DNA of 50,828 nt from Nanobdellota archaeon (GTDB lineage: Archaea > Nanobdellota > Nanobdellia > Pacearchaeales > GW2011-AR1). A program made the translations under genes and the position numbers. Of this stretch, positions 31,882-50,313 are shown in pieces; within the stretch, counting starts at the first letter, position 1, and each line of letters opens with the position of its first letter. Below the pieces are notes generated by a model, which saw only the letters and a program-made list of their open reading frames with translations, was not told the DNA's origin and made no database searches. The stretch spans positions 1-50,828 of the forward strand of contig DAOWGX010000003.1 of assembly GCA_030641715.1 (NCBI GenBank), in the 5' to 3' direction.

Positions 31882-33636
31882 ATGACAAAAATAAGATCTC
31901 CGATTGTGACAGTTTGTGGACACGTCGACCACGGAAAAACTAGTCTTTTGGATAAAATAAGGAAAACAAATGTACAAGAAAATGAAGCGGGAAACATAAC
32001 CCAAAAGATTTCCTTCACAAGAATAGACGCTTCCCTAATCAAAAAAAGGGCAAAACCAATATTAGAAAAATTCAAAATCCCCTTAGAAATCCCGGGCTTG
32101 CTTTTCATCGATACGCCGGGTCACGCGGCATTTACAAACTTACGGAAAAGAGGAGGTTCACTTGCTGACATCGCAGTCCTAGTAATCGACATCAACGACG
32201 GAATAAAACCCCAGACAGCCGAAGTCCTCAAAATCTTAAAAGCAAACAAAACCCCCTTCATCGTCGCATTAAATAAAATCGATAACATTTCCGGATGGCA
32301 AACTTCTAAATCACTTCTTTCCCTCGAGGCAACAGAAAATCAAGCCACAAATGTCAAACAAAATTTCGACGAAAAGTTCTATACCCTCATCGGTGCACTG
32401 CATTCTTACGGATTTAACGCAGACATGTACTCAAAGATAACAGACTTCACACAAAATCTCGCAATCATACCCTGCTCTGCAGAAACCGGCGAAGGAATCT
32501 CCGAGATATTAGCAATAATCACAGCCTTGTCACAAAAATTTCTAAAAGATAGAATAAAAACAAAAGAACAAGGGAAAGGAATCGTATTAGAAGTCAAAAA
32601 AAACAGAGCAATAAATTTTCTAGAATGTATCCTTTACGACGGCAAACTCTCAAACAAAGATGAAATCGCAATCGCCTCGATAGAAGACAGCCCAATCATT
32701 ACAAAAGTCCGAAACATCCAAGAGGCTCAAGGGCCCGCCCCAACCAATGTACCACTTAATAAAAAGTTCAAAACAGAAACCGAAGTCAAAGCAGCAACGG
32801 GAATCCGACTACAAATAATTTCAAAAGAAGAAATTCTCCCAGGAATGCCATTCCAAGTAATCAACAACAATCTTGAAGAAATAAAAAAAGAATTCGCTGA
32901 AGAAATATCTGAAGAAATAAAAACTGACAAAACAGGAATAGTAATCAAAGCGGATTCGTTAGGTTCCCTAGAAGCGTTGCTATTCTTGCTTAAACAAAAA
33001 CAAATCCAGGTAATTCAAGCAGGCATCGGACCGATAACAAAAAAAGATATCTACATGACAAACACCTTGCCAGACGAGAACAAAATTTTAATGGGATTCA
33101 ATGTTAACATAGCCGAAGACGCCAACGTCGACGAATTAAAAGAAATAAAAGTAATTACAGGTCCTATAATTTACAAACTAATTGAAAACTTCGAAAAGTG
33201 GAGGGAAAATAAATTAAAAGAACTCGAACGTCAAAAGCTTAACGATCTCCCCGCAGTCTCTAAAATAACAATTCTCGATTTCGTGTTCAGAAATTCGAAC
33301 CCCGCAGTTTTCGGAGTCCAAGTAAAGGGTGGTATACTTAGGAAAGGAGAACGTTTCATAAATAAAAACGACGAAAAAATAGGACAAATAAAAGAAATCC
33401 AGGAAGATAAAAACAATGTTCAAGAAGCAACAGAAGGAAAAGAAGTTGCAATTTCAATTCCTGGAGTAAATTTTGAGCGACAATTAAAAAAAGGCGAATC
33501 ACTTTACACGAACCTCTCCGAAACTGAATTCAGAAACTTCAAAAAACATAAAGACCTACTAACCTCCAACGAGAAATCTATTTTACAAGAAATAGCGACG
33601 ATAAAACGACGAAAAAATTCAACATGGGGAATTTAA
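31882..33636 (+). CDS. infB: Translation initiation factor aIF5B (IF-2 family GTPase)
   Basis: 584 aa with G1 'GHVDHGKTSLLD', 'DTPGH' and 'NKID'. The domain length is typical of aIF5B. Confidence 0.9.
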   Translation: MTKIRSPIVTVCGHVDHGKTSLLDKIRKTNVQENEAGNITQKISFTRIDASLIKKRAKPILEKFKIPLEIPGLLFIDTPGHAAFTNLRKRGGSLADIAVLVIDINDGIKPQTAEVLKILKANKTPFIVALNKIDNISGWQTSKSLLSLEATENQATNVKQNFDEKFYTLIGALHSYGFNADMYSKITDFTQNLAIIPCSAETGEGISEILAIITALSQKFLKDRIKTKEQGKGIVLEVKKNRAINFLECILYDGKLSNKDEIAIASIEDSPIITKVRNIQEAQGPAPTNVPLNKKFKTETEVKAATGIRLQIISKEEILPGMPFQVINNNLEEIKKEFAEEISEEIKTDKTGIVIKADSLGSLEALLFLLKQKQIQVIQAGIGPITKKDIYMTNTLPDENKILMGFNVNIAEDANVDELKEIKVITGPIIYKLIENFEKWRENKLKELERQKLNDLPAVSKITILDFVFRNSNPAVFGVQVKGGILRKGERFINKNDEKIGQIKEIQEDKNNVQEATEGKEVAISIPGVNFERQLKKGESLYTNLSETEFRNFKKHKDLLTSNEKSILQEIATIKRRKNSTWGI

Positions 33637-36284
33637 AACTGAAAGTTCCCAATAAAATCAAAAATTCCTTTTAATTTTTCAACGGTAACAATCTTTGAAT
33701 AAAATAAATAAAAAGCTATCCCTGAAAGAACAACAATCAAACCTAAAAATATTAAAAAGAACAACTTATGTCTATCTACGAAATCCTTAATCATAAAAAA
33801 CCCTTGCTGAAGATTTTCCCTACCCAGATAAGAAACTACAGCCATTATTGCCACAAAAACTCCTGCAATTAAGTAAATATAACTCCGAACAACCCACCCT
33901 AAAAAACTTGTAAATGTGCCAGACAAAAAGGACGAAACATCATCCCATAAATTCAAAGATCCGCCAACCAAGTTTTTCCCAAACTCAGACATCCTCTCGC
34001 CAAAATTAGAAAAGAAACTACTAAATTGCTCAACAGACAAAATTCCATAACCGAACAAGGCATAAATCAAACCTGCCAACAACATCATAACCAAGATTAC
34101 CAGAGTAATTATTTTTTGTTTATTAGATAAACCGCTCAAACGGTACGATAATCCACCAAAAAATTCTGTCAAACTTCCTCGTTTCAAATAAGCAGTCAAA
34201 ATTAACACTCCCCCTCCAATACAAGAAAGAATAGGAATATAATAACTCTTGATATAACTCCCGACCTTTAGAACAAAATCTCCCGTAATCTGCACGAAAT
34301 TCTGCAACCCTGATTTAACAGAATTAAGAATATCTCCGATTCCTTTGCTAATCTGCTCAACCGTAACAATTCCTGAATAAAACAAGTAAAAAACTATCCC
34401 TGAAAGAATAGTCAACCCTAACAATATCAAGAAAAATAATTTATGTCTAACCACAAAATCTTTGGTTTTATAGAATGTTTGCTGAAGATTATTCCGATTC
34501 AAATAAGCAGCCAAAATTAACACCACCCCCCCAATACAAGAAAGAATAGGAATACAATAATCTCTAACAAATTCCCCAACATTCAGAACGAAATCTCTTA
34601 CAACATTCACCATACTCCCCCATCCTGACCGAATAGAATCAGCAACATTCCCCATTCCCTCGCTGATTTGCCCAACCGTAACAATTCCTGAATAAAATAA
34701 CGCCCCCACGACACCACAACTTAAAACCAAAATTCCCAAAATTATAAGCGAAACCTTATGTTTCCCTACAACCTCTTTAAAATTTTCAAACTTTTCTACC
34801 CTTACCTTGATATTTTCAACCTTTTCATCCTCAACCCTTTTCTGCTCTCGCCATTCTTTAAATTTTTCAAATAAACTAGCTCTCTTCACAATAATCCCCA
34901 ATACCAATAAAACCACAAACCCGACAACTCCCGCCATCACCGGATAAAAATACTCATTCTGAGGAGACAGATAAAAGGGGATAGTTCTAGCAAAAGGTAC
35001 AATCCAACCAACGACACTTCTAAACCAACCGACAACACTATTCCATAACCCTTGTAAAAACGCTATCGTAAAAATCCCACTGTAAAACAAGAAACCAACA
35101 AGTCCCATAAGAAACGCCGCCACAAACAACACTCCGAGGAATTTTTTATGTTCAGAAACGAACGACACATTCCTAACCACCGGCTTTGTAACTACCTTAG
35201 GTTTCGCGACTTTCACATCGCTCTCAGATTTCCTTCTCTCGCTCAACAAGGACTTAATTCGCTGGATAACCCGATTCTTTTTACATAGAACAACTGCAAC
35301 TATCAAAAAAATCAAACTAACAATAGAACCCAGAGCATAATAAAAATAAGAACTAAATGGCGAAAGAATATCTACAAAAGATCGACCGACACCTTGAAAC
35401 GATATATACCCAATACGGTCTAAACAATATGCTAAAACTCCCAAAAGAGTGAATAATATAGATACACTAACTGTGACCTTGTGCTTCTTAACCCATCTCT
35501 CTTCCCTATTTATTCCTGCAATTATCTTTTTCCTCTCCATCCAAAATATAATAAAAAGCATAAAAAGTGCGAACCCAATCAGAACAGGAATAGCATACAA
35601 CTCAAAACCTTTCGCGGCCGTTTCAGCTACCCCGACTATCGACGCGACGCCACTTTCATCAACAGCAATCTCTACAGTTCTGTGTGTATTAGCAATATAA
35701 TCCCCATAAACTAACTGAACGAAAAAAGTGTAAACCCCTGAATCTATCGTCGTCGGCAAATATATCTTCGTCTTCTCCGTCTTCTCTTCAAAATTCCCAA
35801 TATAAATCGTATCGTGCCCAGAAGTCACCGCCTCGCCATCCTTCTCAATCCAAAAATGAACCTCGACATCCCCGCTGATATCTGCCATCCCCTTGAGAAA
35901 ATAAGTAAACTCAAACTCCGTGCCTAATTGAATAGGGGATTGGAAATCAATTATCTTGACATCGAACAATTTTACACACTGATGCATCCAGCACGTTTCC
36001 CCTACAGAAAGATTACAGTCAGCGTCGGAATAACAGCTATAATCATAACATACATATTTCAAACAATAGCGCTCTTCTCCGCAATCCTCGTCCTCCGAAC
36101 ACTGCCAACTCGACCCTCCTTCATCCGAAGAACCTCCGCTATCCGGTGCCGACACAGCCCCAACATTATAATCTCCCGCACTATACGCTCCCGAACCATA
36201 ACTTCCTGAAGAGATTAAAGGCACCGCTACTAACAAAATCATTAACCCTACAAACAAACTCGCACACTTCTTCTTTAATAACAT
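33633..36284 (-). CDS. Large polytopic membrane protein with a Cys-rich/Ig-like ectodomain and at least 6 internal TM-module repeats
   Basis: The ORF is open to 36314. The start is placed at ATG 36284 ('MLLKKKCASLFVGLMILLVAVPL'), which has a gaagga SD and lies 1 nt after the upstream stop. 'RHKLFFLI.LGL..SGI.FYLFYSGIVTVE' modules repeat. Confidence 0.7.
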   Translation of the reverse strand: MLLKKKCASLFVGLMILLVAVPLISSGSYGSGAYSAGDYNVGAVSAPDSGGSSDEGGSSWQCSEDEDCGEERYCLKYVCYDYSCYSDADCNLSVGETCWMHQCVKLFDVKIIDFQSPIQLGTEFEFTYFLKGMADISGDVEVHFWIEKDGEAVTSGHDTIYIGNFEEKTEKTKIYLPTTIDSGVYTFFVQLVYGDYIANTHRTVEIAVDESGVASIVGVAETAAKGFELYAIPVLIGFALFMLFIIFWMERKKIIAGINREERWVKKHKVTVSVSILFTLLGVLAYCLDRIGYISFQGVGRSFVDILSPFSSYFYYALGSIVSLIFLIVAVVLCKKNRVIQRIKSLLSERRKSESDVKVAKPKVVTKPVVRNVSFVSEHKKFLGVLFVAAFLMGLVGFLFYSGIFTIAFLQGLWNSVVGWFRSVVGWIVPFARTIPFYLSPQNEYFYPVMAGVVGFVVLLVLGIIVKRASLFEKFKEWREQKRVEDEKVENIKVRVEKFENFKEVVGKHKVSLIILGILVLSCGVVGALFYSGIVTVGQISEGMGNVADSIRSGWGSMVNVVRDFVLNVGEFVRDYCIPILSCIGGVVLILAAYLNRNNLQQTFYKTKDFVVRHKLFFLILLGLTILSGIVFYLFYSGIVTVEQISKGIGDILNSVKSGLQNFVQITGDFVLKVGSYIKSYYIPILSCIGGGVLILTAYLKRGSLTEFFGGLSYRLSGLSNKQKIITLVILVMMLLAGLIYALFGYGILSVEQFSSFFSNFGERMSEFGKNLVGGSLNLWDDVSSFLSGTFTSFLGWVVRSYIYLIAGVFVAIMAVVSYLGRENLQQGFFMIKDFVDRHKLFFLIFLGLIVVLSGIAFYLFYSKIVTVEKLKGIFDFIGNFQF

Positions 36285-36285
36285 C

Positions 36286-36543
36286 CTATTCCTTCTGCAA
36301 ACACTCAACCGCAATTAAATTTACAGTTTGGTTTTCAATATTTATCGGCACTTGCTGACATGTTACAGCTTGCTGAACCAACTGAACAATTGCCTGTTCA
36401 TATCCATACTGCGCGCCCTGCTGAAAAATCGTAAGCTGTTCTCTCTGTTGTGCTTCCGAATACTTATCAAAAACGATATACCCTACCGCTAACACCAAAC
36501 AAACAACCAAAATACCGACGACCACTAATCCATTTTGTTTCAT
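36286..36543 (-). CDS. Small N-terminally anchored protein
   Basis: 85 aa with strong SD aaggaggg, an N-terminal TM 'LVVVGILVVCLVLAVGYIVF' and a Q-rich ectodomain. Confidence 0.55.
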   Translation of the reverse strand: MKQNGLVVVGILVVCLVLAVGYIVFDKYSEAQQREQLTIFQQGAQYGYEQAIVQLVQQAVTCQQVPINIENQTVNLIAVECLQKE

Positions 36544-36614
36544 TTTTATTTCCCTCCTTTTATATTATTATCAATATGTCCTTTTAATACTTTTTATTCT
36601 ATCAACTCACCATT

Positions 36615-36962
36615 TTAATTAATTTTTTCTTTTTTTAAAATTTCTTCAATTTCTTTTTTTAATTCAGGGATATTTTCATTAACAACCTTCCATATAGTAT
36701 TTAAATCCACCCCAAAATAATGATGAATAATTTTATCTCTGGTTTTGGCAATATCGTTCCAGGGAATGATTGGATATTTTTTCATAAAAGAATCCGGAAT
36801 ATTTTTAACAGCCTCCCCAATTATTTCTAACTGTCTGACTACTGCACTTTGTTTCTCTTCATTATTTAAAAAATTCTCTTCAGAAACTCCCCCCATAAAA
36901 GAATCTATCCGTCTTATACTATCTGAAATATGCTTAACAAAAACGATTGCCTCCCTCTTCAT
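36615..36962 (-). CDS. HEPN (DUF86) toxin of an MNT/HEPN module
   Basis: 115 aa with 'RQLEIIGEA' and the Rx4H motif 'RDKIIH'. Its start overlaps the MNT stop (ATGA). Confidence 0.8.
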   Translation of the reverse strand: MKREAIVFVKHISDSIRRIDSFMGGVSEENFLNNEEKQSAVVRQLEIIGEAVKNIPDSFMKKYPIIPWNDIAKTRDKIIHHYFGVDLNTIWKVVNENIPELKKEIEEILKKEKIN

Positions 36963-37252
36963 ATTATCCTCACCTCCTCGGGTAAAATATATTCCTTAAG
37001 ATGAGGGTTAATCCCATTATAAGTTAATAAATCTACTTTAATTCCTAATCTTTTTTCAAGCTCACTCTCTAATCTAACCAAATCTAATAAACTTCCGTCA
37101 AATTCAATCAAAATATCCACATCACTGCTTTTTTTCTGCTCCCCTCTTGCATAACTGCCAAAGATACCCGCTCTAACTACCTTATTCTTCTTCAATATTT
37201 TTACAATTTTCTTTTTTATTTCCGCAATTTTTTCATTCATTTTCTTTTCCAT
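36959..37252 (-). CDS. Minimal nucleotidyltransferase (MNT) antitoxin
   Basis: 97 aa with 'GIFGSYARGEQKKSSDVDILIEF'. Confidence 0.8.
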   Translation of the reverse strand: MEKKMNEKIAEIKKKIVKILKKNKVVRAGIFGSYARGEQKKSSDVDILIEFDGSLLDLVRLESELEKRLGIKVDLLTYNGINPHLKEYILPEEVRII

Positions 37253-37270
37253 TTTTCCCAGTTCTAATCT

Positions 37271-38107
37271 CTAACTCGCCACCTTAATTAATTTTTTCTT
37301 TTTCTTCCTCTCCGAAACCGAAAGAAAATTATCCTCAGAAACTACCGGTCTGCCGATTTCCCTCTCAGCGTCGACCCTCGCCTTTCCCGCAACATTCCCA
37401 CCCCTTATAGCAGAATCCTTACATTCTTCAAATCCTTCAGAATCCTTATTTGTTGTAATCTCGGTTGTAACTTTTTCACCAAGCATCGAAAAAATCAATT
37501 CCAAGTCGGTCATGTGGTCTCGAAGATTCTCCCTCTCCAAACCCTTCAACTCACGATGCTCCCCAATCGAAACACCAAAAGTCGCCTTCGCAATCTCATC
37601 AGTCAGTATAGCATATTCCACATTCCCTCCAACCCCCCTATCCTTCCACTCATCCGTCAAATCCTGCCTAATCGCAATCCCCCTCAACCTCTTATCAATC
37701 CAACCCTTAGAATACCCTTTCTTCTCATAAAGCACCTTCATCCTCTCCTGAGCCAACTCCGGATTCTCAATCTCATCAATCCGCTCACTCCCAACCTGTG
37801 CCAGCCACAACTTAAACGGCTCCGCTTTCTTCGACGGAATCGATTGAATTATTCTAAAAATTCCTTTCTTGTTTGCACAATTAACTAATTGCTTACCTCC
37901 AGTAGTTTCAATAGAAAGGGTACGTACAAATTGTACCCATCCTTCACTCAGCAAATCATCCCTTTGTTTTAATTTTTGAATATACTGCTTAGGATCCTTA
38001 GAATCTGTCAAAGCAACTATCACATCTTCCAAAGCGAACCACCAGTCCCCCTCATGCCAAGCTCTCCGAATTTCCTTATTACCGAAAACAATTATTTTTT
38101 CATCCAT
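37271..38107 (-). CDS. Bro-N domain / DinD-like (DNA-damage-inducible protein D family) protein
   Basis: Start taken at the internal ATG 'MDEKIIVFGNKEIRRAWHEGDWWFALEDV' with a gggag SD. 'IQSIPSKKAEPFKLWLAQVGSERIDEIENPE' is typical of this family. Confidence 0.65.
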   Translation of the reverse strand: MDEKIIVFGNKEIRRAWHEGDWWFALEDVIVALTDSKDPKQYIQKLKQRDDLLSEGWVQFVRTLSIETTGGKQLVNCANKKGIFRIIQSIPSKKAEPFKLWLAQVGSERIDEIENPELAQERMKVLYEKKGYSKGWIDKRLRGIAIRQDLTDEWKDRGVGGNVEYAILTDEIAKATFGVSIGEHRELKGLERENLRDHMTDLELIFSMLGEKVTTEITTNKDSEGFEECKDSAIRGGNVAGKARVDAEREIGRPVVSEDNFLSVSERKKKKKLIKVAS

Positions 38108-38123
38108 CTTTTCTCCCAACAAC

Positions 38124-40244
38124 TTACCCGAACCAACCCCTAACCCCATCAACAACCTTCTCAAACCCAGAAACGAACCACTCCCGAATCTCCAACCCAG
38201 CGTCCCCAACATTCCTCACAATCTTCCCCGTTATCCCAACATCAACCTCATCCTCCTCCGCACCCTTATCCTTCTTCTCTTTATCTTCCTTCTTCTCCTT
38301 CTCCTCGTCCTCTGCTTTGCCCTCCAAAGGTACACTCGGTGCCTCCACATCATCAACCTCACTCTCATTTCCCTCTTCTACACTCTCATTCCCAACACCA
38401 ACAACATCCTCCAAAGAATCCTTCTTCTTAGGCTTCTTCCCCTTCACCGTCTCATTCACACTCTCATTCACAACAACCTCCTCCTCCAAAAGCACACTCT
38501 CAACCCCCAACCCCTTACACCAACTATAACTCCCATCCTTCTTGCACAACTCCTCCTCCAACATCGAAATCCTCTCGTCCTGTTCGCCAACCTTCCCAAA
38601 CAACTCCTTAACGCTCTCAATAACCATCGTCAGCGTCCCGCCAATATCCCTCGTCCACAAAACCTCCGCCTTCCCAACCTCCGTCCTAGAAACATCCAAC
38701 TCCTCCGCAACAAACGCCTCCTGCTCACTCTCGCTCAAACCCTCATCGACCTCAACGCTCTCCTTTACCTTAACCTTATACTCCTCCTCCCGATAGACGC
38801 TCTCATTATCCTCATCAACCCCGACCTTAACCCGCTTAGAACGTTTCTCCTCCTTCTCGACAACATAATGCTTACTCCTCAACTTAACAGGATAAGACTC
38901 GTGGTCAAGTTCCCCATCTATATTTTTAATTTCAGCAACCGCCTCCAAAGCCGACCCATCACTCTCATTCTCCCAAGCCGGAGTCAAATCATAATACGTC
39001 ACCGCATAAACATTATCCCAAGCCAAATTCGCCGTTCCCAAATCATAAGTCGTGTTTATCCCGGGGATAATACTCCCATTAACCTTTAACGACCCATTTC
39101 CAACACCAATAAAAGCATCCGTTTTATCATGCGTCAAACTCACCCACTGCGAGTTGTCCGTGTCGGGGTTAGTATCCGAATGGATGTAAAGCGTTGGGTT
39201 TGTTTGGAAGGGGTGGTCGTGGTCTTTCGCATTATTATTAGCATTTATAATAACTATTTGATTTCCAACAGCATCGTTAATAGCAAAAAGTTCTTGGTCG
39301 AATACTGGGTCAGAATTAATTATCAGACCAGTAATCGAACCATATTGAAATCTTACTGCACCTGTAGCTATAGAAAGGTCTAAATTCCCATTACCTATTT
39401 TAAGCTCACCGTTTCCCTGGTCATGATACATCTCAATATAATCGTTCGCCTGGGTAGCATCGCTGGAGTAGACTCGGAAGACTGGGTCTGCGGAGGTTGA
39501 GGTTGGGGAACGGTTTGCGTTTCCCATGTCGGCATTTTCCATTATGGATATATAACCAGAATATGCGGCACTTCCAACCTGTGTACCTATTTGAAAATTA
39601 TCGTTCCCTGTAGTTTGCCATAGCATTCTTATATCATTATTTCCACCCCATCTTACTTCAGCATTATCGTTGAATTTAGCTAATATATTCCCAAAAGAAA
39701 AACTACTAAGACCTGTATTGGATGATAAAGTGACCTGATTACTGTTACCTTCAAAATCCAACGTCAAGTCCTCATTATTCGTCCCCCCAATTCCCCCAAG
39801 CGTCAGCGTTCCCGTCGGTGAGAGGATGGAACTGTTTACGCTGATGTTTCCGTTGACGTCTAGGGTACTGTTTGGGGAACTCGTGCCGATTCCGACGTTG
39901 CCTCCATTAAAATAAGAATCTCCACTTCCCGTAATAAAAGATTTTATAACACCACTTTCATAAATATTTAATTCTCCTCCAGTATTATCTGCATCAAATA
40001 CAACTGCATTTGCCCCGCCATCATCCTCTCTAAGAAACCACCGCCCATTAACAACTCGGAAATCTCCATCTTTTACTGTTAAAGCTGATTCAGGCGTCGC
40101 AGTCCCAATCCCAACCCGTCCCGAACTCCCATTAACAAAAAACAAACTATCCCCATTAGAAGTAATATTAAAATTCTTAGCACTAATAAAAGGTGTTAAA
40201 ACTAATAACACGCACAATATCCAAACTACTTTCTTACCATCCAT
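38124..40244 (-). CDS. Secreted fibre-like surface protein (full length, 706 aa)
   Basis: Signal peptide 'VVWILCVLLVLTPFISA'. Repeated 'VGIGT..P...L.V.G' motifs. 'DLGTANLAWDNVYA' is reminiscent of a tail-fibre module. Long acidic C-terminal region. Paralog of 43474..44883. Confidence 0.65.
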   Translation of the reverse strand: MDGKKVVWILCVLLVLTPFISAKNFNITSNGDSLFFVNGSSGRVGIGTATPESALTVKDGDFRVVNGRWFLREDDGGANAVVFDADNTGGELNIYESGVIKSFITGSGDSYFNGGNVGIGTSSPNSTLDVNGNISVNSSILSPTGTLTLGGIGGTNNEDLTLDFEGNSNQVTLSSNTGLSSFSFGNILAKFNDNAEVRWGGNNDIRMLWQTTGNDNFQIGTQVGSAAYSGYISIMENADMGNANRSPTSTSADPVFRVYSSDATQANDYIEMYHDQGNGELKIGNGNLDLSIATGAVRFQYGSITGLIINSDPVFDQELFAINDAVGNQIVIINANNNAKDHDHPFQTNPTLYIHSDTNPDTDNSQWVSLTHDKTDAFIGVGNGSLKVNGSIIPGINTTYDLGTANLAWDNVYAVTYYDLTPAWENESDGSALEAVAEIKNIDGELDHESYPVKLRSKHYVVEKEEKRSKRVKVGVDEDNESVYREEEYKVKVKESVEVDEGLSESEQEAFVAEELDVSRTEVGKAEVLWTRDIGGTLTMVIESVKELFGKVGEQDERISMLEEELCKKDGSYSWCKGLGVESVLLEEEVVVNESVNETVKGKKPKKKDSLEDVVGVGNESVEEGNESEVDDVEAPSVPLEGKAEDEEKEKKEDKEKKDKGAEEDEVDVGITGKIVRNVGDAGLEIREWFVSGFEKVVDGVRGWFG

Positions 40245-40245
40245 T

Positions 40246-40713
40246 TTATTTTCCGACTAATTGACTTCGTATCTTATTTATTTTACTATCGTCTAATTTA
40301 AGAATAATGTCCCTTGACACCACAAAAAAACTATACGCCTCTCCCCAAACCATTTCCAAATCTTTTTTATTCACCATTTTATCAACATAATACTGGAGCG
40401 TATTTCTCACAGAAAAAGCCGTCTCTATTAATCTTACATCTTCTTCCCAATAAAAATCCATCAGAAACAACTTCATAAACTCAATTGAACAAGAATGTAT
40501 CTCACACTTAACTCCTATCTTCTGCATGACCGCATAAAGAGAATAATAAATTAAATAATAACCTGCAGAAATACTAAACACCGAATTCTTGTCCTTTTCC
40601 CTATCCATAGTCCCGAACGAATCCTCCGCCATCTTTAGATAACCTTTAGCCAACCGTTCATTCGGTTCCACCAAAACCATACCCTTTCTTAAACACCACT
40701 TCAACTTATCCAT
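40246..40713 (-). CDS. HEPN-like protein, non-canonical motif (module 3)
   Basis: 155 aa with 'AGYYLIYYSLYAVMQKIGVKCEIHSCSIEF' and 'VRNTLQYY'. It overlaps the NTase by 8 nt and has a gggggtg SD. Confidence 0.6.
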   Translation of the reverse strand: MDKLKWCLRKGMVLVEPNERLAKGYLKMAEDSFGTMDREKDKNSVFSISAGYYLIYYSLYAVMQKIGVKCEIHSCSIEFMKLFLMDFYWEEDVRLIETAFSVRNTLQYYVDKMVNKKDLEMVWGEAYSFFVVSRDIILKLDDSKINKIRSQLVGK

Positions 40714-41275
40714 TCAAAACACCCCCTATAAATTTATCATGCCCCTTCAACAACACATGTTCCTCCAAAATTTCCGCAATAAGAGGTGAACCTTTCCTTA
40801 AAGACTCTCCAAAATCCTCAGACGACAAAGCAAACACCTGAACATCATAACCGTACCGCCTCCCAATCTTTCTTACGCCCCGAGAATCAACATCCCCAAC
40901 AACCAAAAGGTCTAAATCGGAATGTTTCTTGTGTGTGCCCTTAGCATAACTCCCAAAAACACAAACAATATCTCCCCTAACAGCTTCAGAGAAATCAATT
41001 AATTTTTTATTTTTCTCTAAAAATTCAATCTTCCTATATAACTCAAACAAAATAATATAATCCTTAATCATCGGATTAACAAGATTCAGCGAATAATATC
41101 TCCTGTTTTTACTTAATCGAGATTTCAAAATTCCCATCCGTTCTAATTCAATCAAAGTCAACGCAACATTCTTCTGACTCAGACCAGTTTTCTCAACAAA
41201 ATCACTTGCATAGAGCTCCTTATCGTATCCCCTCAGGAATCCTCTTATCATCTTAAAATATTTATTTTGTAACAT
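40706..41275 (-). CDS. wHTH-fused nucleotidyltransferase (module 3)
   Basis: 189 aa with an N-terminal wHTH ('GLSQKNVALTLIELERMGILK') and 'VFGSYAKGTHKKHSDLDLLVVGD'. Confidence 0.7.
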   Translation of the reverse strand: MLQNKYFKMIRGFLRGYDKELYASDFVEKTGLSQKNVALTLIELERMGILKSRLSKNRRYYSLNLVNPMIKDYIILFELYRKIEFLEKNKKLIDFSEAVRGDIVCVFGSYAKGTHKKHSDLDLLVVGDVDSRGVRKIGRRYGYDVQVFALSSEDFGESLRKGSPLIAEILEEHVLLKGHDKFIGGVLNG

Positions 41276-41381
41276 TTTACTTAATCAAGTATTTTTTTAC
41301 TAACCATTTAAACCCATACCCTTTAAATTTATTTGTTTACTTAACTTAGATAAAAACCCCTCATCAATAAAAACAACCATC

Positions 41382-41597
41382 TTATCCATTACAACCCCCT
41401 AAAAAAAAGTCATCCAGCGACCCCGAAGAATCACTGGGGGACATATCAATATTAACATTAGTTCTATCTTCATAAATTTTTCCATTAACAAAAAACAAAC
41501 TATCCCCATTCGAAGTAACGTTAAAATTCTTAGCAAGACAAAAAGGCACAGCCAACAAAAACATACAGAAAATCAAAACCATTTTTTTACTTGCCAT
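41382..41597 (-). pseudogene. Truncated fibre-protein N-terminal cassette (71 aa), or a short secreted paralog
   Basis: 'MASKKMVLIFCMFLLAVPFCLAKNFNVTSNGDSLFFVNG' parallels the N-terminus of 38124..40244 and then ends as '...FLGGCNG*'. Confidence 0.5.
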
Positions 41598-42033
41598 CTT
41601 TTTTTACCCTATCCCTTATCTTCTCTATTTTAGAATCATCTAACATATTTAAAACTTCCTCACATTTTAAGACAAACTCTTTAATTCCCTGAAGATTATT
41701 TAATTCAGCCTTTGCACGACAATATTGCACTCGAATCCTCCTCTCCTTAAGCTCCTTCATAAACCTTACATCCTTCTCAGAAAAATCAAAGAACCCCATC
41801 AACTTAATAGTACAATCATGAATTTCAGACTTTATTCCGCATTTCATCAAAATAGCATAAACAGCGTCGTAACAAGCATAATACCCCGTAATAACTTTCC
41901 ATTTCCCCTCAGAGCTCATGCAAACCTTAAAACTATCATACGCATCCTCAAGATAAGACTCCGCCAAATGAGATTTCTTATCAATTAGACTAATCCCCTT
42001 GCTTTGCTTTAAACACCAGTTAATACCTACCAC
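41587..42033 (-). CDS. HEPN-like protein, non-canonical motif (module 2)
   Basis: The ORF is open to 42156. A GTG at 42033 with a ggggggtga SD aligns with the paralog N-termini ('INWCLKQ'). Also 'GYYACYDAVYAILMKCGIKSEIHDCTIKL' and 'RIRVQYC'. Confidence 0.55.
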   Translation of the reverse strand: MVGINWCLKQSKGISLIDKKSHLAESYLEDAYDSFKVCMSSEGKWKVITGYYACYDAVYAILMKCGIKSEIHDCTIKLMGFFDFSEKDVRFMKELKERRIRVQYCRAKAELNNLQGIKEFVLKCEEVLNMLDDSKIEKIRDRVKKDGK

Positions 42034-42646
42034 TCTCACCCCCCGAAAAAAGTTTAACAACCTTAAAAAAATCCCCGAATAAAATATGATTCTTACAAAT
42101 CTCCAAAAACAACGGCTCCTTTTTCTTAGACAAACTCTTAAACTCTTCAAAACCAAAATAATAAATATTAATATCCATAGGAGAAAGTTCCCTTAAAGCA
42201 TCAATTTCTTTTTTACTAGATTTTCCAAGGACAACCAAATCCAAATCAGAATTTTTTTTATATCTGCCCGAAGCATAAGAACCAAACAAAATAATTCCCT
42301 CACAGAATCTTAAAATTTTATTAATAATAATTCCCTGTTTTTTACAGTTAAGAATAAAATCGAGTGTCCTTTTATGTTCTGCAATTCCCAATAAAAGTTC
42401 AGAATTTGGGTTATCCAATTCCAGATAAAACTCCTTGTTCTTTCCAGCAACATTATACCTAACCAAATTAAATTCAGCTAATTTATTCAAAACTCTCGAC
42501 GCAGTCTGCTGGGAAATTTTAGTAGACCTTGAAATATCACTCGCAGTTAATTTTGCAGAATAATCACTACAAAAAGGCACAAGAATTTCTACCCATTTTT
42601 GGGTAATGTTACCCATTTTTGCAGCAATTATATTTTCCATTTTCAT
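42020..42646 (-). CDS. wHTH-fused nucleotidyltransferase (module 2)
   Basis: 208 aa with 'LFGSYASGRYKKNSDLDLVVLGK' and an N-terminal wHTH ('ISQQTASRVLNKLAEFNLV'). Confidence 0.7.
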   Translation of the reverse strand: MKMENIIAAKMGNITQKWVEILVPFCSDYSAKLTASDISRSTKISQQTASRVLNKLAEFNLVRYNVAGKNKEFYLELDNPNSELLLGIAEHKRTLDFILNCKKQGIIINKILRFCEGIILFGSYASGRYKKNSDLDLVVLGKSSKKEIDALRELSPMDINIYYFGFEEFKSLSKKKEPLFLEICKNHILFGDFFKVVKLFSGGESGRY

Positions 42647-42815
42647 ACAATTTTAACATTCTCATCTGAATCAACCCTCAAACCCCCGCCGTTTGATGTC
42701 ACATTAAATTTACTTAACTTAGACAAAAACCCCTCATCAATAAAAACAAAAGTCTTATCCATTACAACCTCCACATTCCGGACAAGCCCCTTTTCGCAAT
42801 CCCCCCATTTCATAA

Positions 42816-43316
42816 TCATTTTAACTTAAAACTCCCATAAAGTTTAATTCCATTAAGAACATTATTCAAAAGCTCTATATTAAGTTTACGAATATCAGAT
42901 TTGACAAACAACTGAATTTTATGCTTCAGTTTCTTTTCAAACTTTGACAAATCAATTTCTTTCCTCACAGAACTCTCAACAAACAAATCAATATCACTCT
43001 CTTTCACAGATTCCGCCTTCCTGATACTGCCAAAAAGAATAATACAAGAAGGATTCAAATTTACAATAAGTTCCTCCAAAAGCCCGGAAGAAACAATTTT
43101 TTCTGTAAAATAATTAGTTTTTTTAATCTTGAATAATAATGTATTTTCTGGCTGGTTCTCTTGAGTAATTAATTTCTGTTTCTTAAGAAAACTTAAATAT
43201 TTATGAATTGTCGCCTTCGGAATCTTTGCCAACTTAGCAAGTTTTCTCACAGTAAAATTCTCATCAGGAAACTCATAAAAAACTTCAAGTATCTTGTTCA
43301 TTACATCATGTTCCAT
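42816..43316 (-). CDS. Solo wHTH-fused nucleotidyltransferase (no HEPN partner)
   Basis: 166 aa with 'LFGSIRKAESVKESDIDLFVES' and wHTH 'TVRKLAKLAKIPKATIHKYLSFLKKQKLI'. It has its own A/T box tctatatatatgg about 25 nt upstream. Confidence 0.65.
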   Translation of the reverse strand: MEHDVMNKILEVFYEFPDENFTVRKLAKLAKIPKATIHKYLSFLKKQKLITQENQPENTLLFKIKKTNYFTEKIVSSGLLEELIVNLNPSCIILFGSIRKAESVKESDIDLFVESSVRKEIDLSKFEKKLKHKIQLFVKSDIRKLNIELLNNVLNGIKLYGSFKLK

Positions 43317-43473
43317 TTTAAAGACTTAAGTCCATATATATAGACTTACCCTATTTAATTCATCTAGGAAGTCCCTTTCCTTCCACCCCTCCAAAATTGT
43401 TTTTATCATTTCCATTTTAACCCAATTTTACACGATTTTCATACTATTCAAATTTAGCCGGTCTAATTTCACC

Positions 43474-44883
43474 TCAGCTTAAATCAATAACAATGTCGCC
43501 CCCTTGAACATTTAGTGCCGTTCCGCTTGTTGCATTTACATCCAACTTAGCATTAGGCGTCGTCGTCCCAATCCCCACATTCCCAACCGGCATCAACGCC
43601 AAATCCCCCTTCCCCGTCTCAATCCGCGCGTAATCCGTCGCGTTAATATAAGCCATACTTAACCATTCTGTGTTGTCATCGTCGGGGTTTGTGTCCGAAT
43701 GAATGTAGAGAGTTGGGTTTGTCTGGACATTGTGGTCGAAAGCTTTTGAAGCTACATTTGAATTTGCAATAATGATTTGGTTTCCGCCTAAATCGTGGGG
43801 GGCAATAACAAATTGCGTAAAAGTTGGGTGAAAAATAAATCTTCCGGCTAATAAAGCGTTGCTATTTTTGAATGATACAATATTATTTTTAGGTGTAATA
43901 AATAATCCACCTGAACCTGTTGTAATAACTCCATCATCCTGGTCATGATACATCTCAATATAATCGTTCGCCTGGGTAGCATCGCTGGAGTAGACTCGGA
44001 AGACTGGGTCTGCGGAGGTGGCGAGGGGGGAACGGTTTGCGTTTCCCATATCGTCTCTTTCCATCAAAGAAAGATAAGCACCTGTAGAAGTTCTAGTTCC
44101 CATCTGCATATTATCATTACCAGTAGTTTGATATCTCATTCTAAAGTCAGCACCATCACCAAATGTATATGTGCGTAGGTCAGGGAAAAGAACTTCTTGT
44201 ATGTCCATTCTTAAAACAGCAACATCTTGTGTCAATATATTTTGTGTTGCTGATGATTCAAAATCAAGGGCTATCGAATTATTATTCGTCCCCCCAGTTC
44301 CGCCAAGAGTCAGCGTTCCCGTCGGTGAGAGGATGGAACTGTTTACGTGGATGTTTCCTTGGACGTCTAGGGTTGCGTTTGGGGAGGTTGTCCCAATCCC
44401 AACCCTCCCTGTCCCCTCGTCAACAAACAAAGTATCCGTATTAACCGAAAAATTATTCGCTCCTAAGTCTACGTTTTGGGCTGCTCCGGTGTAGGGGATG
44501 TAAAGAGAAGAACCGTTCCAATTACCAAAAAAATTATCTGCTGTGATGTTATCCGTTACTTCTAAATTCCCAGTAATCTTCATTATTCCGTTCACTATAT
44601 TATCAATCATCTCACCGAAAGCGAAAGTTATTTTCTTCCCGAGAGTTAAATTCGTCGCATCCGAAATATCAGCATCAGTTATCGCCCCATCAACTATTTG
44701 CAAACCAGAAACTGTATCGTTCCTCAGCTCCCCGCTTTCATTATGCGACACATTCAGAAACTCATTCAAAACCGTTCCCCACGAACCGCTATCCCCTCCT
44801 ACCGTCGGTAACCGCTCCGCAGTTACCGCCGAAGCAACCAAAACCACAAAAAGCAACACAACTATTTTTTTTAAATTATTCAT
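43474..44883 (-). CDS. Secreted fibre-like surface protein (469 aa)
   Basis: Signal peptide 'VVLLFVVLVASAVTA' and 'VGIGTTSPNATLDVQGN' motifs. It shares near-identical nucleotide tracts with 38124..40244. Its start lies 1 nt after the HEPN stop. Confidence 0.65.
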   Translation of the reverse strand: MNNLKKIVVLLFVVLVASAVTAERLPTVGGDSGSWGTVLNEFLNVSHNESGELRNDTVSGLQIVDGAITDADISDATNLTLGKKITFAFGEMIDNIVNGIMKITGNLEVTDNITADNFFGNWNGSSLYIPYTGAAQNVDLGANNFSVNTDTLFVDEGTGRVGIGTTSPNATLDVQGNIHVNSSILSPTGTLTLGGTGGTNNNSIALDFESSATQNILTQDVAVLRMDIQEVLFPDLRTYTFGDGADFRMRYQTTGNDNMQMGTRTSTGAYLSLMERDDMGNANRSPLATSADPVFRVYSSDATQANDYIEMYHDQDDGVITTGSGGLFITPKNNIVSFKNSNALLAGRFIFHPTFTQFVIAPHDLGGNQIIIANSNVASKAFDHNVQTNPTLYIHSDTNPDDDNTEWLSMAYINATDYARIETGKGDLALMPVGNVGIGTTTPNAKLDVNATSGTALNVQGGDIVIDLS

Positions 44884-44884
44884 T

Positions 44885-45355
44885 TTACTTTCCCTTCAAT
44901 TTATCTATTTTATCACGAAAATCTTTAATATCTTCATCTGTCAAACTTTCAACAATTTCTCTAAAATCCAGATAAAAATTCTTAACTTTAAGATAAAACC
45001 CGGACAGTTTTTCTTTTTGACCAGTTTTAAGATAATACTGAGAATCAATTCTACCTTTCTTAAAAGAAACTATCTCCCCTATAAAACCCTTATTCAATAA
45101 CTCTTTCACAAGCTCAATTGAACAATCGTGATTTTCTGACTTAACCCCTATTCTCTGCAAAAAAGAATACAGCGAATAATAAGCACAATAATAAATTCTG
45201 ACAGACGCCCAAACAAAATCATTTTCCTCAATAAGATCTTTAATCTTAGATAAAGTTTTCTCCGCCTCGCCAAGATAAGACAATGCAATCTCCTCATTAG
45301 GTTCAACCACCTTCAACCCCTTCCTTATCGAAAAACACCAATTTATTCTATCCAT
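44885..45355 (-). CDS. HEPN-like protein, non-canonical motif (module 1)
   Basis: 156 aa with 'IYYCAYYSLYSFLQRIGVKSENHDCSIEL' and 'RIDSQYY'. It overlaps the NTase by 13 nt. Confidence 0.6.
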   Translation of the reverse strand: MDRINWCFSIRKGLKVVEPNEEIALSYLGEAEKTLSKIKDLIEENDFVWASVRIYYCAYYSLYSFLQRIGVKSENHDCSIELVKELLNKGFIGEIVSFKKGRIDSQYYLKTGQKEKLSGFYLKVKNFYLDFREIVESLTDEDIKDFRDKIDKLKGK

Positions 45356-45888
45356 TCTATGTTCGTAAAATAATCTCCCCCATTTACAATAATATGATTA
45401 TCCATTACCTCTTTAATTAATGTTTCCTTTTTCCCCAACGCAAACTCAAACTGATTTTTCGTCAGACAAATTGAATGAATCTTCACAGGACACAAATGTT
45501 CCGGAATTTTTCTGGATGACAAAATCAGTATATCAATATCGCTATTTTTATTAAAACTTTTTTTAGCATAACTTCCAAAAATTAAACAAGGAATATTATT
45601 CTTGACAAAATAACTAAAAAATTCCCTGAATCGAGGATTAGCTTTAATAAAAAACTGTGCTTTTCTAAGTTCAATTATCCTTGCCAAATACAAAGTTTCA
45701 AGATTTCTCTTAAAAAAATAATATGTATTTTTTCCTTCTTTCTTTTTCTCAATAAAATTAGAATAATCCTTCAGTACTTGTTGAGTTCCTCCAATACTCA
45801 CCCCGGACTTTTCAGACAACTCTCTAAAAAAAACAGGTCTCCCTAACCGGTTCATCAATTCCAATACTCTGTATTCGTTTAAGTTCAT
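45343..45888 (-). CDS. wHTH-fused nucleotidyltransferase (module 1)
   Basis: 181 aa with 'IFGSYAKKSFNKNSDIDILILSS' and wHTH 'FRELSEKSGVSIGGTQQVLKD'. Confidence 0.7.
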   Translation of the reverse strand: MNLNEYRVLELMNRLGRPVFFRELSEKSGVSIGGTQQVLKDYSNFIEKKKEGKNTYYFFKRNLETLYLARIIELRKAQFFIKANPRFREFFSYFVKNNIPCLIFGSYAKKSFNKNSDIDILILSSRKIPEHLCPVKIHSICLTKNQFEFALGKKETLIKEVMDNHIIVNGGDYFTNIEWIE

Positions 45889-45904
45889 TTGTATTCGTTT
45901 AAGT

Positions 45905-46267
45905 TCATTCTATTTTATATCCTACCTTTATACTTCCATCCGAATCAATTATTAAAATTCCGCCACTTAAAGTAATATAAAAATCCCCATTAATCTGCAA
46001 CTTACTACCAGAACTTCCTGTCTCTTTATCAGCAAACAAAGAATCCATGTTGACCAAAAAAATATTCGAACCCAAAACCACATCAGACCTCAATCCCCCG
46101 CTTTCATTATGAGACACATTCAAAAACTCATTCAACACCGTCCCCCACGAACCACTGTCCCCTCCCACCGCCGGTAACCGCTCCGCGGTTACCGCCGAAA
46201 CAACTAAGATAAATAATAAAAAACAACACACAAAAACACCAATTTTCCGTTTCACCCTCGTTACCAT
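45905..46267 (-). pseudogene. Truncated fibre-protein N-terminal cassette (120 aa), or a short secreted paralog
   Basis: 'VVSAVTAERLPAVGGDSGSWGTVLNEFLNVSHNESGGLRSD' is about 90% nt-identical to the 5' end of 43474..44883. A/T box ctttaataac lies about 27 nt upstream, so this is probably the operon head. Confidence 0.5.
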
Positions 46268-46360
46268 ATAAGACTACAATAATGAAAGTTATTAAAGCTT
46301 TCGCGTTACTAACGACAAAGAGCTCATCCCCCTAAAATTCCAATCTAAAATCTCCAAAAG

Positions 46361-46370
46361 CCTTTTAAAC
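46361..46370 (+). promoter_or_regulatory. Putative TATA box for rps6e (leaderless)
   Basis: cttttaaacc is centred about 26 nt upstream of ATG 46391. Confidence 0.45.
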
Positions 46371-46390
46371 CCAAATCCTTACCCCCTACT

Positions 46391-46825
46391 ATGACATTCA
46401 AAATAAACGTATCCCACAACGGAAAAACGTACAAAGTCGAGACTGAAGACGAAAAATTAGTCGGTAGTTCAATCGGCGACAAAATCAAAGGCGGGGAAAT
46501 ATCCGAAAACTTAGCAGATTACGAAATCAAAATAACAGGAACATCCGACAAAGCAGGATTCACCGGAATGGCAAACATTGACGGACCAAACCTCCACAAA
46601 GTCCTGCTCGATTACGGAAAAGGTATGCATAAAAAACCAAAAGGGGAGAAAAAACTTAGTAGAAAACCGAAAGGACTAAGATTAAGAAAAACCGTCCGGG
46701 GAAACGAAATCTCCCTCGCAACAGTTCAGATTAACACAAAAGTTTTAAAAGAAGGTTCCAAAAAGTTTGAGACACTTTTTGAAAAAACAGAAACACCTGA
46801 GGAAAATAAAACTCCAGAAAATTAA
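46391..46825 (+). CDS. rps6e: 30S ribosomal protein S6e
   Basis: 144 aa with 'GYEIKITGTSDKAGF' and 'GLRLRKTVRGNEIS', which fit the S6e pattern. Confidence 0.85.
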   Translation: MTFKINVSHNGKTYKVETEDEKLVGSSIGDKIKGGEISENLADYEIKITGTSDKAGFTGMANIDGPNLHKVLLDYGKGMHKKPKGEKKLSRKPKGLRLRKTVRGNEISLATVQINTKVLKEGSKKFETLFEKTETPEENKTPEN

Positions 46826-48987: not shown

Positions 48988-50214
48988 ATGACAGAAAAAA
49001 TCGAAATCTCAAAACTCGACACAATAAATATCGGAATAGTCGGACATATAGACCACGGAAAAACGACACTTCTCCAAAAACTTTCAGGTAAATGGGCTGA
49101 CACACATTCCGAAGAATTAAAACGAGGAATCACAATCAAGCTCGGATATGCAGACGCAATTATTTATGACAGCGAAGGAAAATTAACAACCAACAGAAAC
49201 TCAAAAGGAAAACCAATTCGTTACATAACTTTCGTCGACGCGCCAGGACACGAAATGCTCATGGCAACAATGCTCTCCGGAGCCGCAATCATGGACGCCG
49301 CAATTCTCGTCGTCGCAGCAAACGAAGGAATCAAACCTCAAACACAAGAACACCTCGTCGCACTAAAAGCAAAAAAAATAAAAAAAGTTATCATCGTTCA
49401 AAACAAAATCGACCTTGTCTCAAAAGAACGCGCCCTAAAAAATCACGAAGATATCAAAAACTTTGTCAAAGGAACAATCGCCGAGGACGCACCAATAATC
49501 CCTATTTCCGCACAACAAGAAGTAAACCTCGATAAAGTCTTGGAAGAATTATGTAAAATCAAAATTGCCGAACAACTACTAAAAGAAAAACCCTTATTTT
49601 TAGTAGCCCGAAGTTTTGATATAAACTTGCCTCGAACCAAAATAAAAGACCTTCACGGAGGAGTTCTTGGAGGAGCACTAAAAAAAGGAGTCCTAAAAAT
49701 AGGAGATATAATCGAAATCAAACCCGGATATTCTTACAAAAAAAACATTCCTGCAAACCGCAATTCGGAATATCAATACAAAACCGTTCAATCAAAAATC
49801 GTATCAATGCAAAAAGGAGAATATCCGATAACCAAAGCAACTCCTGGTGGAAGTCTAGCGATAGAAACTGAACTCGATCCGAGCCTGACAAAAGCAGACG
49901 CACTTTCAGGAAGTGTGGCATCTCTTCAAGACAACCTCCCAGAAATAACTGAAAAAATCACCATAAAGTTCACACTCTTCAAAGAAGTTTTCGGAACAGG
50001 AAAACACGAACCAGTTCAAAATTTAAAAACTCCCGAAACATTAATGTTAAGCTTAAACACCTCAACCACCGTCGGTCAGCTAATTAAAATCAATAAAGAC
50101 GAAGCAGAACTAACCCTAAAAATTCCGATAGTCCCGCTAAAAGGAGAATCAATCGGAATCGCAAGGAACTTCAACAATCACTGGCGACTCATCGGTTTTG
50201 GAGAGATTTGCTGA
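48988..50214 (+). CDS. eif2g: Translation initiation factor aIF2 gamma subunit
   Basis: 408 aa with 'NIGIVGHIDHGKTTL', 'RGITIKLGYA', 'DAPGHE' and 'QNKIDL'. Confidence 0.9.
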   Translation: MTEKIEISKLDTINIGIVGHIDHGKTTLLQKLSGKWADTHSEELKRGITIKLGYADAIIYDSEGKLTTNRNSKGKPIRYITFVDAPGHEMLMATMLSGAAIMDAAILVVAANEGIKPQTQEHLVALKAKKIKKVIIVQNKIDLVSKERALKNHEDIKNFVKGTIAEDAPIIPISAQQEVNLDKVLEELCKIKIAEQLLKEKPLFLVARSFDINLPRTKIKDLHGGVLGGALKKGVLKIGDIIEIKPGYSYKKNIPANRNSEYQYKTVQSKIVSMQKGEYPITKATPGGSLAIETELDPSLTKADALSGSVASLQDNLPEITEKITIKFTLFKEVFGTGKHEPVQNLKTPETLMLSLNTSTTVGQLIKINKDEAELTLKIPIVPLKGESIGIARNFNNHWRLIGFGEIC

Positions 50215-50313
50215 CTTTAACAAATGAGTAAATTTTGAAGTTAGGAGATTGAGCAGAAATCTGTTGATTTCAACAAATAGATAAAATCTGAAATTAACTG
50301 ATTGAGCAGAAAT
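50211..50313. repeat. Degenerate tandem direct repeat (50 + 53 nt)
   Basis: ctgactttaacaaatgagtaaattttgaagttaggagattgagcagaaat / ctgttgatttcaacaaatagataaaatctgaaattaactgattgagcagaaat. The first unit contains the aIF2-gamma stop codon. Confidence 0.75.

Follow-up and report, generated by a model that had tools for sequence, protein, structure and literature searches.

How can two genes that are diverged over most of their length be identical, letter for letter, in a few short stretches? The question is raised by a pair of tail-fibre-like genes, here called S706 and S469, in a 50,828-nucleotide (nt) stretch of DNA from a Nanobdellota archaeon (contig DAOWGX010000003.1 of assembly GCA_030641715.1), referred to below as the window. 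The window is the entire contig C20 of a metagenome-assembled genome (MAG) of 731 kb, in 30 contigs and 84% complete, whose DNA came from a cold-seep metagenome. An earlier note on this DNA had described the shared tracts and had ascribed them to recombination between expressed genes and silent or truncated cassettes. A signature of gene conversion or recombination, in the form of a deficit of synonymous changes within the tracts, is indeed present; the part of the proposal that made silent or truncated cassettes the donors found no support. The two genes, 4.5 kb apart and in direct orientation, and their shared tracts are as follows.

38124-40244, minus strand: S706, 706 amino acids (aa), with a signal peptide, a GIGT module, a core module and an acidic, GC-rich C-terminal tail
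43474-44883, minus strand: S469, a secreted, tail-fibre-like paralogue of 469 aa
39416-39497, minus strand: tract 1 in S706, encoding ...TSADPVFRVYSSDATQANDYIEMYHDQ; 82 nt, identical to 43938-44019, GC content 52%
43938-44019, minus strand: tract 1 in S469
39505-39527, minus strand: tract 1b in S706, encoding MGNANRSP; 23 nt, identical to 44027-44049
44027-44049, minus strand: tract 1b in S469
39802-39840, minus strand: tract 2 in S706, encoding VNSSILSPTGTLT; 39 nt, identical to 44309-44347
44309-44347, minus strand: tract 2 in S469

The tracts were recovered as exact matches between the two genes. Tracts 1 and 1b are each one nucleotide longer than the 81 and 22 nt claimed, and tract 2 is exact over the 39 nt given. 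Tracts 1 and 1b are parted by a 7-nt patch with five mismatches that change two residues, and an additional exact run of 16 nt is found at 39774-39789 (identical to 44281-44296). The offset between the two copies shifts from 4522 to 4507 between the tracts, so the variable segment that they enclose differs by 15 nt in length. The flanks are much more diverged than the tracts, as had been stated: S706 and S469 share 54% amino acid identity over the core and, in the 279 codons that can be aligned, 63% nucleotide identity. In 45-nt sliding windows over this core the identity ranges from 29% to 100%, so that the pattern is mosaic and not uniform. A run of 82 was reached in none of 20,000 shuffles of the aligned columns. 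The shared identity is confirmed as real and far beyond chance.

The synonymous sites carry the argument further. Among the degenerate codons that encode the same amino acid in both genes, 43 of 149 differ, and two runs are free of any synonymous change: one of 26 codons (S706 aa 250-276), with none of the 26 same-aa codons of tract 1 differing, and one of 22 codons (aa 123-147), within which tract 2 lies. Outside both runs 43 of 101 same-aa codons differ (~43%). By permutation, the longest run has P = 0.002 and both runs together P = 1e-5. For calibration we used the rpS6e and cysS orthologues of this genome and of a relative, L017 (JAGLLG010000033, a Pacearchaeota MAG), which show 0.36-0.44 synonymous differences. 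The flanks of the tracts, with 33-55% synonymous differences, equal or exceed these two-species housekeeping orthologues, which indicates that S706 and S469 are old paralogues and not recent duplicates. Recent duplication followed by fast protein divergence was ruled out on the same grounds, the flank synonymous sites being near saturation.

A conserved peptide could in principle be imagined to fix its own codons, and comparison with other copies bears on this. Six viral or metagenomic copies of the motif DPV(F/L)RVYSSDAT.A.DYIEMYHDQ depart from our sequence at 9-11 of 17-20 same-aa codons, the three core modules of L017 differ from ours and from one another at 5-7 of ~24 same-aa codons in tract 1, and in L028, a more distant metagenomic copy, the tract has the synonymous changes that one would expect. 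Within our own pair, the next conserved block of both genes (QTNPTLYIHSDTNPD...) served as a control, and 6 of its 19 same-aa codons differ synonymously. The DNA of the tract is not prescribed by its peptide. The two copies of tract 1 in this genome match at 100%, and their identity to the three modules of L017 is 84-91%, with flanks that are 46-65% identical; the modules of L017 are themselves only 85-89% alike, which shows that homogenisation is not general in the lineage.

From these results we infer that general homologous recombination has probably produced short-tract gene conversion between two old paralogues. They belong to a mosaic fibre family that resembles the mosaic adhesive trimer (MAT) fibres discussed below, and the conversion would be confined to conserved framework motifs. 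Short stretches would have been copied recently and non-reciprocally, either between S706 and S469 or from a third, closely related copy into the two of them. The likeliest agent is the RadA-dependent machinery of the cell; a Rad51/RadA family match is present on contig C28 of the genome (E 2.6e-96). The stretches presumed to be converted fall on the pair of framework motifs that is most conserved in the core, VNSSILSPTGTLTLGG and MGNANRSP..TSADPVFRVYSSDATQANDYIEMYHDQ. Nucleotide similarity would be enough to start and resolve a heteroduplex only at these motifs, so that homogenisation would reinforce itself there, and the hypervariable segments between them would remain distinct. The same conserved blocks may also act as crossover anchors for the broader shuffling of modules in the family.

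Several observations weigh against this explanation, and they are best taken together with the two alternatives that they favour. The synonymous-run statistics come from a single gene pair, S706 and S469, and an outgroup comparison of the tract with the relative's fibre sequences (91% to rel_F2, 84-89% to rel_F1) does not discriminate donor from recipient. Between genomes, moreover, only 21-29% of the same-aa codons of tract 1 differ, against 36-44% in the housekeeping orthologues, so that some of the identity could stem from constraint or from exchange with an external pool. Constraint would here mean purifying selection on the nucleotide sequence itself, for translational accuracy or for an embedded cis element, with no recombination at all. 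The composition of the tracts is in keeping with it: their GC content is 52-56% and their GC content at third codon positions (GC3) 0.57-0.67, with many C-ending codons of the NNY type, in a genome of 36.5% GC where the variable segments between the tracts have 36%. These figures fit GC-biased conversion, a foreign origin kept up by exchange, or codon selection alike. Yet the codons of the tracts are mixed (GAT, TAT, CAT and ATT stand beside GAC and TAC), codon choice in the tract varies among the L017 modules, L028 and the viral homologues, and even at a per-codon difference of 0.25, the lowest seen between genomes, finding none of 26 changed has a probability of ~6e-4. There is no stable RNA structure either (z = +1.1; 176 of 200 shuffles fold as well), and an RNA element in the tract was rejected, its fold being no better than those of the shuffles. 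Selection on the nucleotides is therefore a quite unlikely sole cause.

The other alternative is that both genes received the same block independently from an external donor, be it a co-resident strain, a related species or a fibre-carrying virus. Homologues of the core module do sit on phage-like contigs with ERF genes and SU10 portal and major capsid protein (MCP) genes, and a 40-nt exact run in tract 2 is common to Fibre1 of L017 and to C17_559, a paralogue elsewhere in this genome. Logan unitigs add to this; they were built with k = 31 and overlap by k-1 bases, so that summed depths over-count, and depths were used unitig by unitig. The stretch 39465-39517 has a depth of 26-38 in run X1 and of 12-27 in the sister samples X2 and X3, where this organism reaches only 2-3x, which means that exact 39-44-mers of the tract are present in other, more abundant genomes; this, too, counts against an exchange within one cell. 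A 3067-nt contig of X1 outside this MAG, furthermore, is 98.4% identical to 44027-44269, the 'variable' segment of S469, and turns to unlike sequence exactly at the 23-nt conserved block 44027-44049, so that the same cassette stands beside different neighbours in the community. On the other side, the central part of tract 1 (39423-39489) has a depth of 14.9 in X1, against 9.4-11.9 in the flanks, which corresponds roughly to the two copies of this genome and leaves little beyond them, and two imports of the same three blocks are less parsimonious than one event inside the genome. We regard import from outside as unlikely; it is still recombination, and only the donor differs from that in the gene conversion proposed here.

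Since the window derives from a short-read metagenome assembly, the collapse or chimerisation of two similar regions has also to be weighed. The contigs of X1 show 4 differences from 44027-44269 and offer no match at 95% or more for 44360-44399, and strain heterogeneity is possible in this part of S469 (44027-44399). An independent k = 31 assembly, however, contains X1 unitigs that join the unique flanks of both copies to the tract without a mismatch (38703-39445, 39488-39831 and 43596-43967), together with an exact 67-nt unitig of the tract itself. The two copies follow each other in direct order on a single linear contig, separated by unique genes. The graph therefore allows one alternative path only, a deletion and not a swap, and collapse cannot make identity in two distinct contexts. 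An artefact is thus highly improbable. No alternative junctions of this genome were found in the contigs of four runs, these being Logan contigs, which drop rare variants. Apparent joints (e.g. 39207 to 43938) were rejected as deletions; their sides are short, their middle is uncertain, and they arise from other homologues.

The idea that expressed fibres are rewritten from stored sequences, in the manner of pilE/pilS, vls or VSG cassettes, or by a retroelement or an invertase, drew on the three truncated fibre open reading frames (ORFs) of the array and on the arrangement of conserved blocks around variable segments. The truncated ORFs are the following.

45905-46267, minus strand: F120, 120 aa, in which a 5' end and a C-terminal tail, both of the Fibre1 type, adjoin; the remnant of an internal deletion
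41382-41597, minus strand: F71, a 71-aa 5' fragment of an S706-type fibre
42643-42819, minus strand: F58, a chimera of 58 aa, made of an NYN N-terminal fragment and an ancestral Fibre1 C-terminal tail

The three carry no more than signal-peptide 5' ends, two of them with 3' tails, and have their own ATG starts, and neither the variable core nor either of the converted tracts is found in F120, F71 or F58. The paired matches of 5' ends that had been put at about 90% exist and are weaker than that: F120 and S469 are 83% identical (46062-46207 against 44696-44841; 84.6% over 143 nt by blastn), and F71 and S706 are 89% identical over 65 nt (41482-41546 against 40129-40193). F71 diverges or stops exactly where the GIGT module should begin. 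The tail of F120 (GGILIIDSDGSIKVG) resembles that of the relative (NGGSLVVDSDGNIKIGI), positions 4196-4255 of L017 matching 45965-45908 at 78%, and F58 is syntenic with the end of the 1079-aa Fibre1 of L017, upstream of MNT208. The N-terminal regions of F120, S469 and L017 Fibre1 are about equally diverged (synonymous fractions 0.30-0.36 over the alignable parts), which gives no sign of recent exchange there; nt 61-150 of S469 are 90% identical to both of the others. Exchange between an expressed gene and a silent or truncated cassette, as the earlier note had it, accordingly finds no support: the truncated ORFs look like scars of deletions and of the insertion or duplication of fibre-MNT-HEPN units, not like stores of variable sequence. 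The exchange to which the tracts point is one between the two genes of full length.

Nor were means for programmed variation found in the genome. The repeats are direct and none is inverted, neither a reverse transcriptase (RVT_1) nor a serine recombinase was found in the 84%-complete genome, and its single Xer-like tyrosine recombinase lies on another contig, C25. The mismatches are not adenine-specific, all four bases being involved. A diversity-generating retroelement (DGR) was rejected for the want of RVT_1 and of adenine-specific mismatches, and an invertase or shufflon of the Gin/Cin/Rci type for the direct repeats and the absence of any resolvase, invertase or serine recombinase besides that tyrosine recombinase on C25. 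With no alternative junctions in the contigs of the four runs either, programmed rewriting is a very unlikely account of the tracts.

A 64-nt element recurs in the stretches 41300-41399 and 42643-42819, at 41336-41399 and 42709-42772, with 92% identity. It codes for the N-terminal part of an NYN-domain protein (MDK..VFIDEGFLSKLSK), of which C4:24329-24910 holds a full paralogue, and F58 joins it, in frame, to the C-terminal tail of the ancestral Fibre1.

Mosaicism extends to the fibre family at large. Along S469 the closest partner in nucleotides shifts: rel_F1 and F120 hold this place over aa 1-80, S706 over aa 161-200 and again over aa 281-310, and C17_559 and P0005 over aa 401-440, with none detectable between these segments. 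Two further paralogues lie on other contigs of the genome.

C17:10274-11953: C17_559, a paralogue of 559 aa with a fibre core body
C4:18413-20167: C4_584, a paralogue of 584 aa with a right-handed beta-helix body (Beta_helix domain), tailspike-like

These two are 87% identical in nucleotides over the first 219 nt (the first ~75 residues) and have unrelated bodies. The family thus combines a conserved N-terminal part with exchanged distal domains. The genes downstream of C17_559 and C4_584 (membrane-anchored, 314 and 323 aa; loci C17:10274-12926 and C4:17466-20167) are 80% identical to each other.

A wider hypothesis would make the conserved blocks the crossover anchors of a community-wide network, in which DPANN episymbionts, and possibly viruses, swap the variable host-recognition segments of MAT-like fibres, conversion keeps the anchors compatible, and MNT/HEPN pairs travel with the fibre units and stabilise them. 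We put this forward tentatively, as something that may well not hold.

What kind of proteins are S706 and S469? Hydrophobic, signal-like segments are visible at the N-termini of both. No Pfam or NCBIfam family was matched by either protein, and PHROG tail-fibre families were matched weakly (E 5e-7 to 3e-5; phrog_9942 for S706, E 5e-7). A monomer model of S469 (AF2/AlphaFold) has a pLDDT (predicted local distance difference test) score of 70.8; searched against BFVD it finds phage tail fibres as its best matches (top E 1.5e-7, many tail fibres among the matches listed), and a fold search of the PDB with the same model returned nothing significant. The core module that bears tract 1 has no solved structural match. 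A profile of the family compared with the PDB gave five matches at E up to 1, all of them MAT fibre proteins of Bdellovibrio, the best being Bd2133 (8OND) with an E of 1.2e-6 over ~90 profile positions. The nearest named relatives of the fibre proteins come from Pacearchaeota and Nanoarchaeia MAGs, and one Nanoarchaeia member of the family has a Peptidase_S74 domain. Besides those on phage-like contigs, further homologues occupy ordinary chromosomal neighbourhoods of other DPANN genomes, where HEPN/MNT genes are absent. The earlier reading of these genes as fibre-like is borne out by the PHROG and BFVD matches and by the homologues on phage-like contigs, and S706 and S469 are best explained as cell-encoded, secreted, phage-tail-fibre-like adhesins. 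Their trimeric state, surface display and binding are putative, as is any adaptive part that they would play in the recognition of hosts.

The C-terminal third of S706 (38124-38800) is acidic, rich in lysine and glutamate and of low complexity, and with a GC3 of 0.6-0.73 it is the most GC-rich part of the window; nothing in the comparison set, paralogue or homologue, was detectably similar to this tail in nucleotides. On three phage-like metagenomic contigs (L013, L015 and L016) a gene of 118-120 aa stands directly after the fibre homologue. It might be a fibre assembly factor, and no gene of this type follows S706 or S469. Literature searches on gene conversion or tail-fibre-like proteins in Pacearchaeota found nothing.

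The array has a chromosomal setting. The genome carries rpS6e, aIF5B and cysS of the archaeal type and is that of a DPANN archaeon of the Pacearchaeota type. The fibre genes lie between two of these core genes and are interleaved with genes for winged helix-turn-helix (wHTH) nucleotidyltransferases (MNT) and HEPN proteins.

31882-33636: aIF5B
46391-46825: rpS6e
33633-46390: the island, 12.7 kb between aIF5B and rpS6e
45343-45888, minus strand: MNT181, a wHTH-nucleotidyltransferase (Pfam NTP_transf_2)
44885-45355, minus strand: HEPN156 (Pfam HEPN), directly upstream of S469 with a 1-nt gap
42816-43316, minus strand: MNT166
42020-42646, minus strand: MNT208, orthologous to the MNT between Fibre1 and Fibre2 of the relative L017
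41587-42156, minus strand: HEPN189, orthologous to the HEPN between Fibre1 and Fibre2 of L017
40706-41275, minus strand: MNT189, a wHTH-nucleotidyltransferase (Pfam)
40246-40713, minus strand: HEPN155, HEPN-like, directly upstream of S706 with a 1-nt gap; 35% amino acid identity to HEPN156

Besides the fibre array, the island contains a Bro-N gene, a minimal MNT/HEPN pair, two small ORFs and the gene of an 893-aa membrane protein. Starting at 46267 and following the minus strand, one meets F120; MNT181, HEPN156 and S469; MNT166 and F58; MNT208, HEPN189 and F71 with the NYN fragment; MNT189, HEPN155 and S706; then the Bro-N protein and then the minimal MNT/HEPN pair. The MNT and HEPN proteins encoded beside S706 and those beside S469 are 28-37% identical, a further sign that the divergence of the two units is ancient. 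In five other genomes of the same genus aIF5B and rpS6e are only 1.3-3.6 kb apart, with no fibre genes between them in any of the five; the stretch is a lineage-specific island. L017 has at the same position cysS, rpS6e, Fibre1, MNT207, HEPN151 and Fibre2, Fibre1 being 1079 aa long with two core modules and Fibre2 longer than 625 aa.

The whole island was considered as a prophage and rejected: no transfer RNA (tRNA) gene was found in the window, island borders included, nor an integrase at the borders or elsewhere in the window, and the same chromosomal position is used in the second genome, L017. The Bro-N protein (37271-38212) matches phrog_15286 over its full length (E 9e-83), and the 893-aa membrane protein (33633-36314) has a weak likeness to tape-measure proteins (E 8e-8); these two hint at a possible viral contribution to the island. 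Two small repeats were also seen, an exact 20-bp tandem duplication that runs across the F120 stop and the MNT181 start (45870-45909) and, at 50202-50307, two tandem 53-nt units, 74% identical, that start at the 3' end of the ORF 48988-50214.

DPANN archaea rely on attachment to host cells, and the proteins by which they recognise them are largely unknown. The locus supplies candidate host-recognition proteins for Pacearchaeota, together with a testable picture of how they would diversify: a fibre family that appears to evolve by module exchange and short-tract gene conversion in a hypervariable island beside core translation genes. Gene conversion among paralogues of surface proteins is already well known, and what is added here is its extension to a new group and no new principle.

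Diversity-generating retroelements occur in organisms of the DPANN and Candidate Phyla Radiation (CPR) groups. With these our locus shares the setting, surface or adhesion proteins of small-genome episymbionts, and the repeated near-identical stretches; it differs from them in that the tracts lie mid-gene, in a conserved framework and not in a C-terminal variable region, and in the lack of a reverse transcriptase. Antigenic variation in Neisseria (pilE/pilS) and Borrelia (vlsE) proceeds through gene conversion, with short non-reciprocal transfers among surface-protein sequences and conserved blocks that bound variable ones, as would be the case here. Unlike those systems, our locus has no architecture of expression site and silent cassettes, its truncated copies are devoid of the variable segments, and the stretches that would be transferred are the conserved parts and not the variable ones.

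Phage tail-fibre genes (e.g. those of T-even and lambdoid phages) evolve mosaically by homologous recombination at conserved linker blocks. The likeness to our genes is evident in short conserved blocks that alternate with unrelated variable segments, in the best partner that shifts along the gene, and in the core homologues carried by phage-like contigs. The difference is that the partners here are two chromosomal genes of one cell and not co-infecting phage genomes, at a conserved chromosomal position beside rpS6e that is used in L017 as well.

The closest parallel is with the MAT fibres of Bdellovibrio bacteriovorus, which include Bd2133, Bd1334 and Bd3182 (PDB 8OND, 8OML and 8OJN; PMC10769870). 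As with MAT, we deal with cell-encoded, secreted, phage-tail-fibre-like proteins of an organism that needs to attach to other cells, and with a family of several paralogues in which shafts are conserved and tips exchanged; Bd2133 and Bd1334, for instance, share 75% identity over their fibre region, beyond which their C-termini differ (PMC10769870). The S74 subgroup of MAT has a counterpart in the Nanoarchaeia member of our family with Peptidase_S74. Unlike MAT, our host is an archaeon (DPANN), the profile match covers only ~90 positions, the fibres are known from their sequence and a monomer model, and nucleotidyltransferase/HEPN pairs alternate with the fibre genes. Nucleotide tracts that are nearly identical from one paralogue to the other are a feature of our pair, and none is described for MAT in the portion of PMC10769870 that underlies this comparison. 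If the community-wide network of anchors, tentative as it is, should prove true, it would be an archaeal counterpart of phage host-range variation and of prey recognition by Bdellovibrio.

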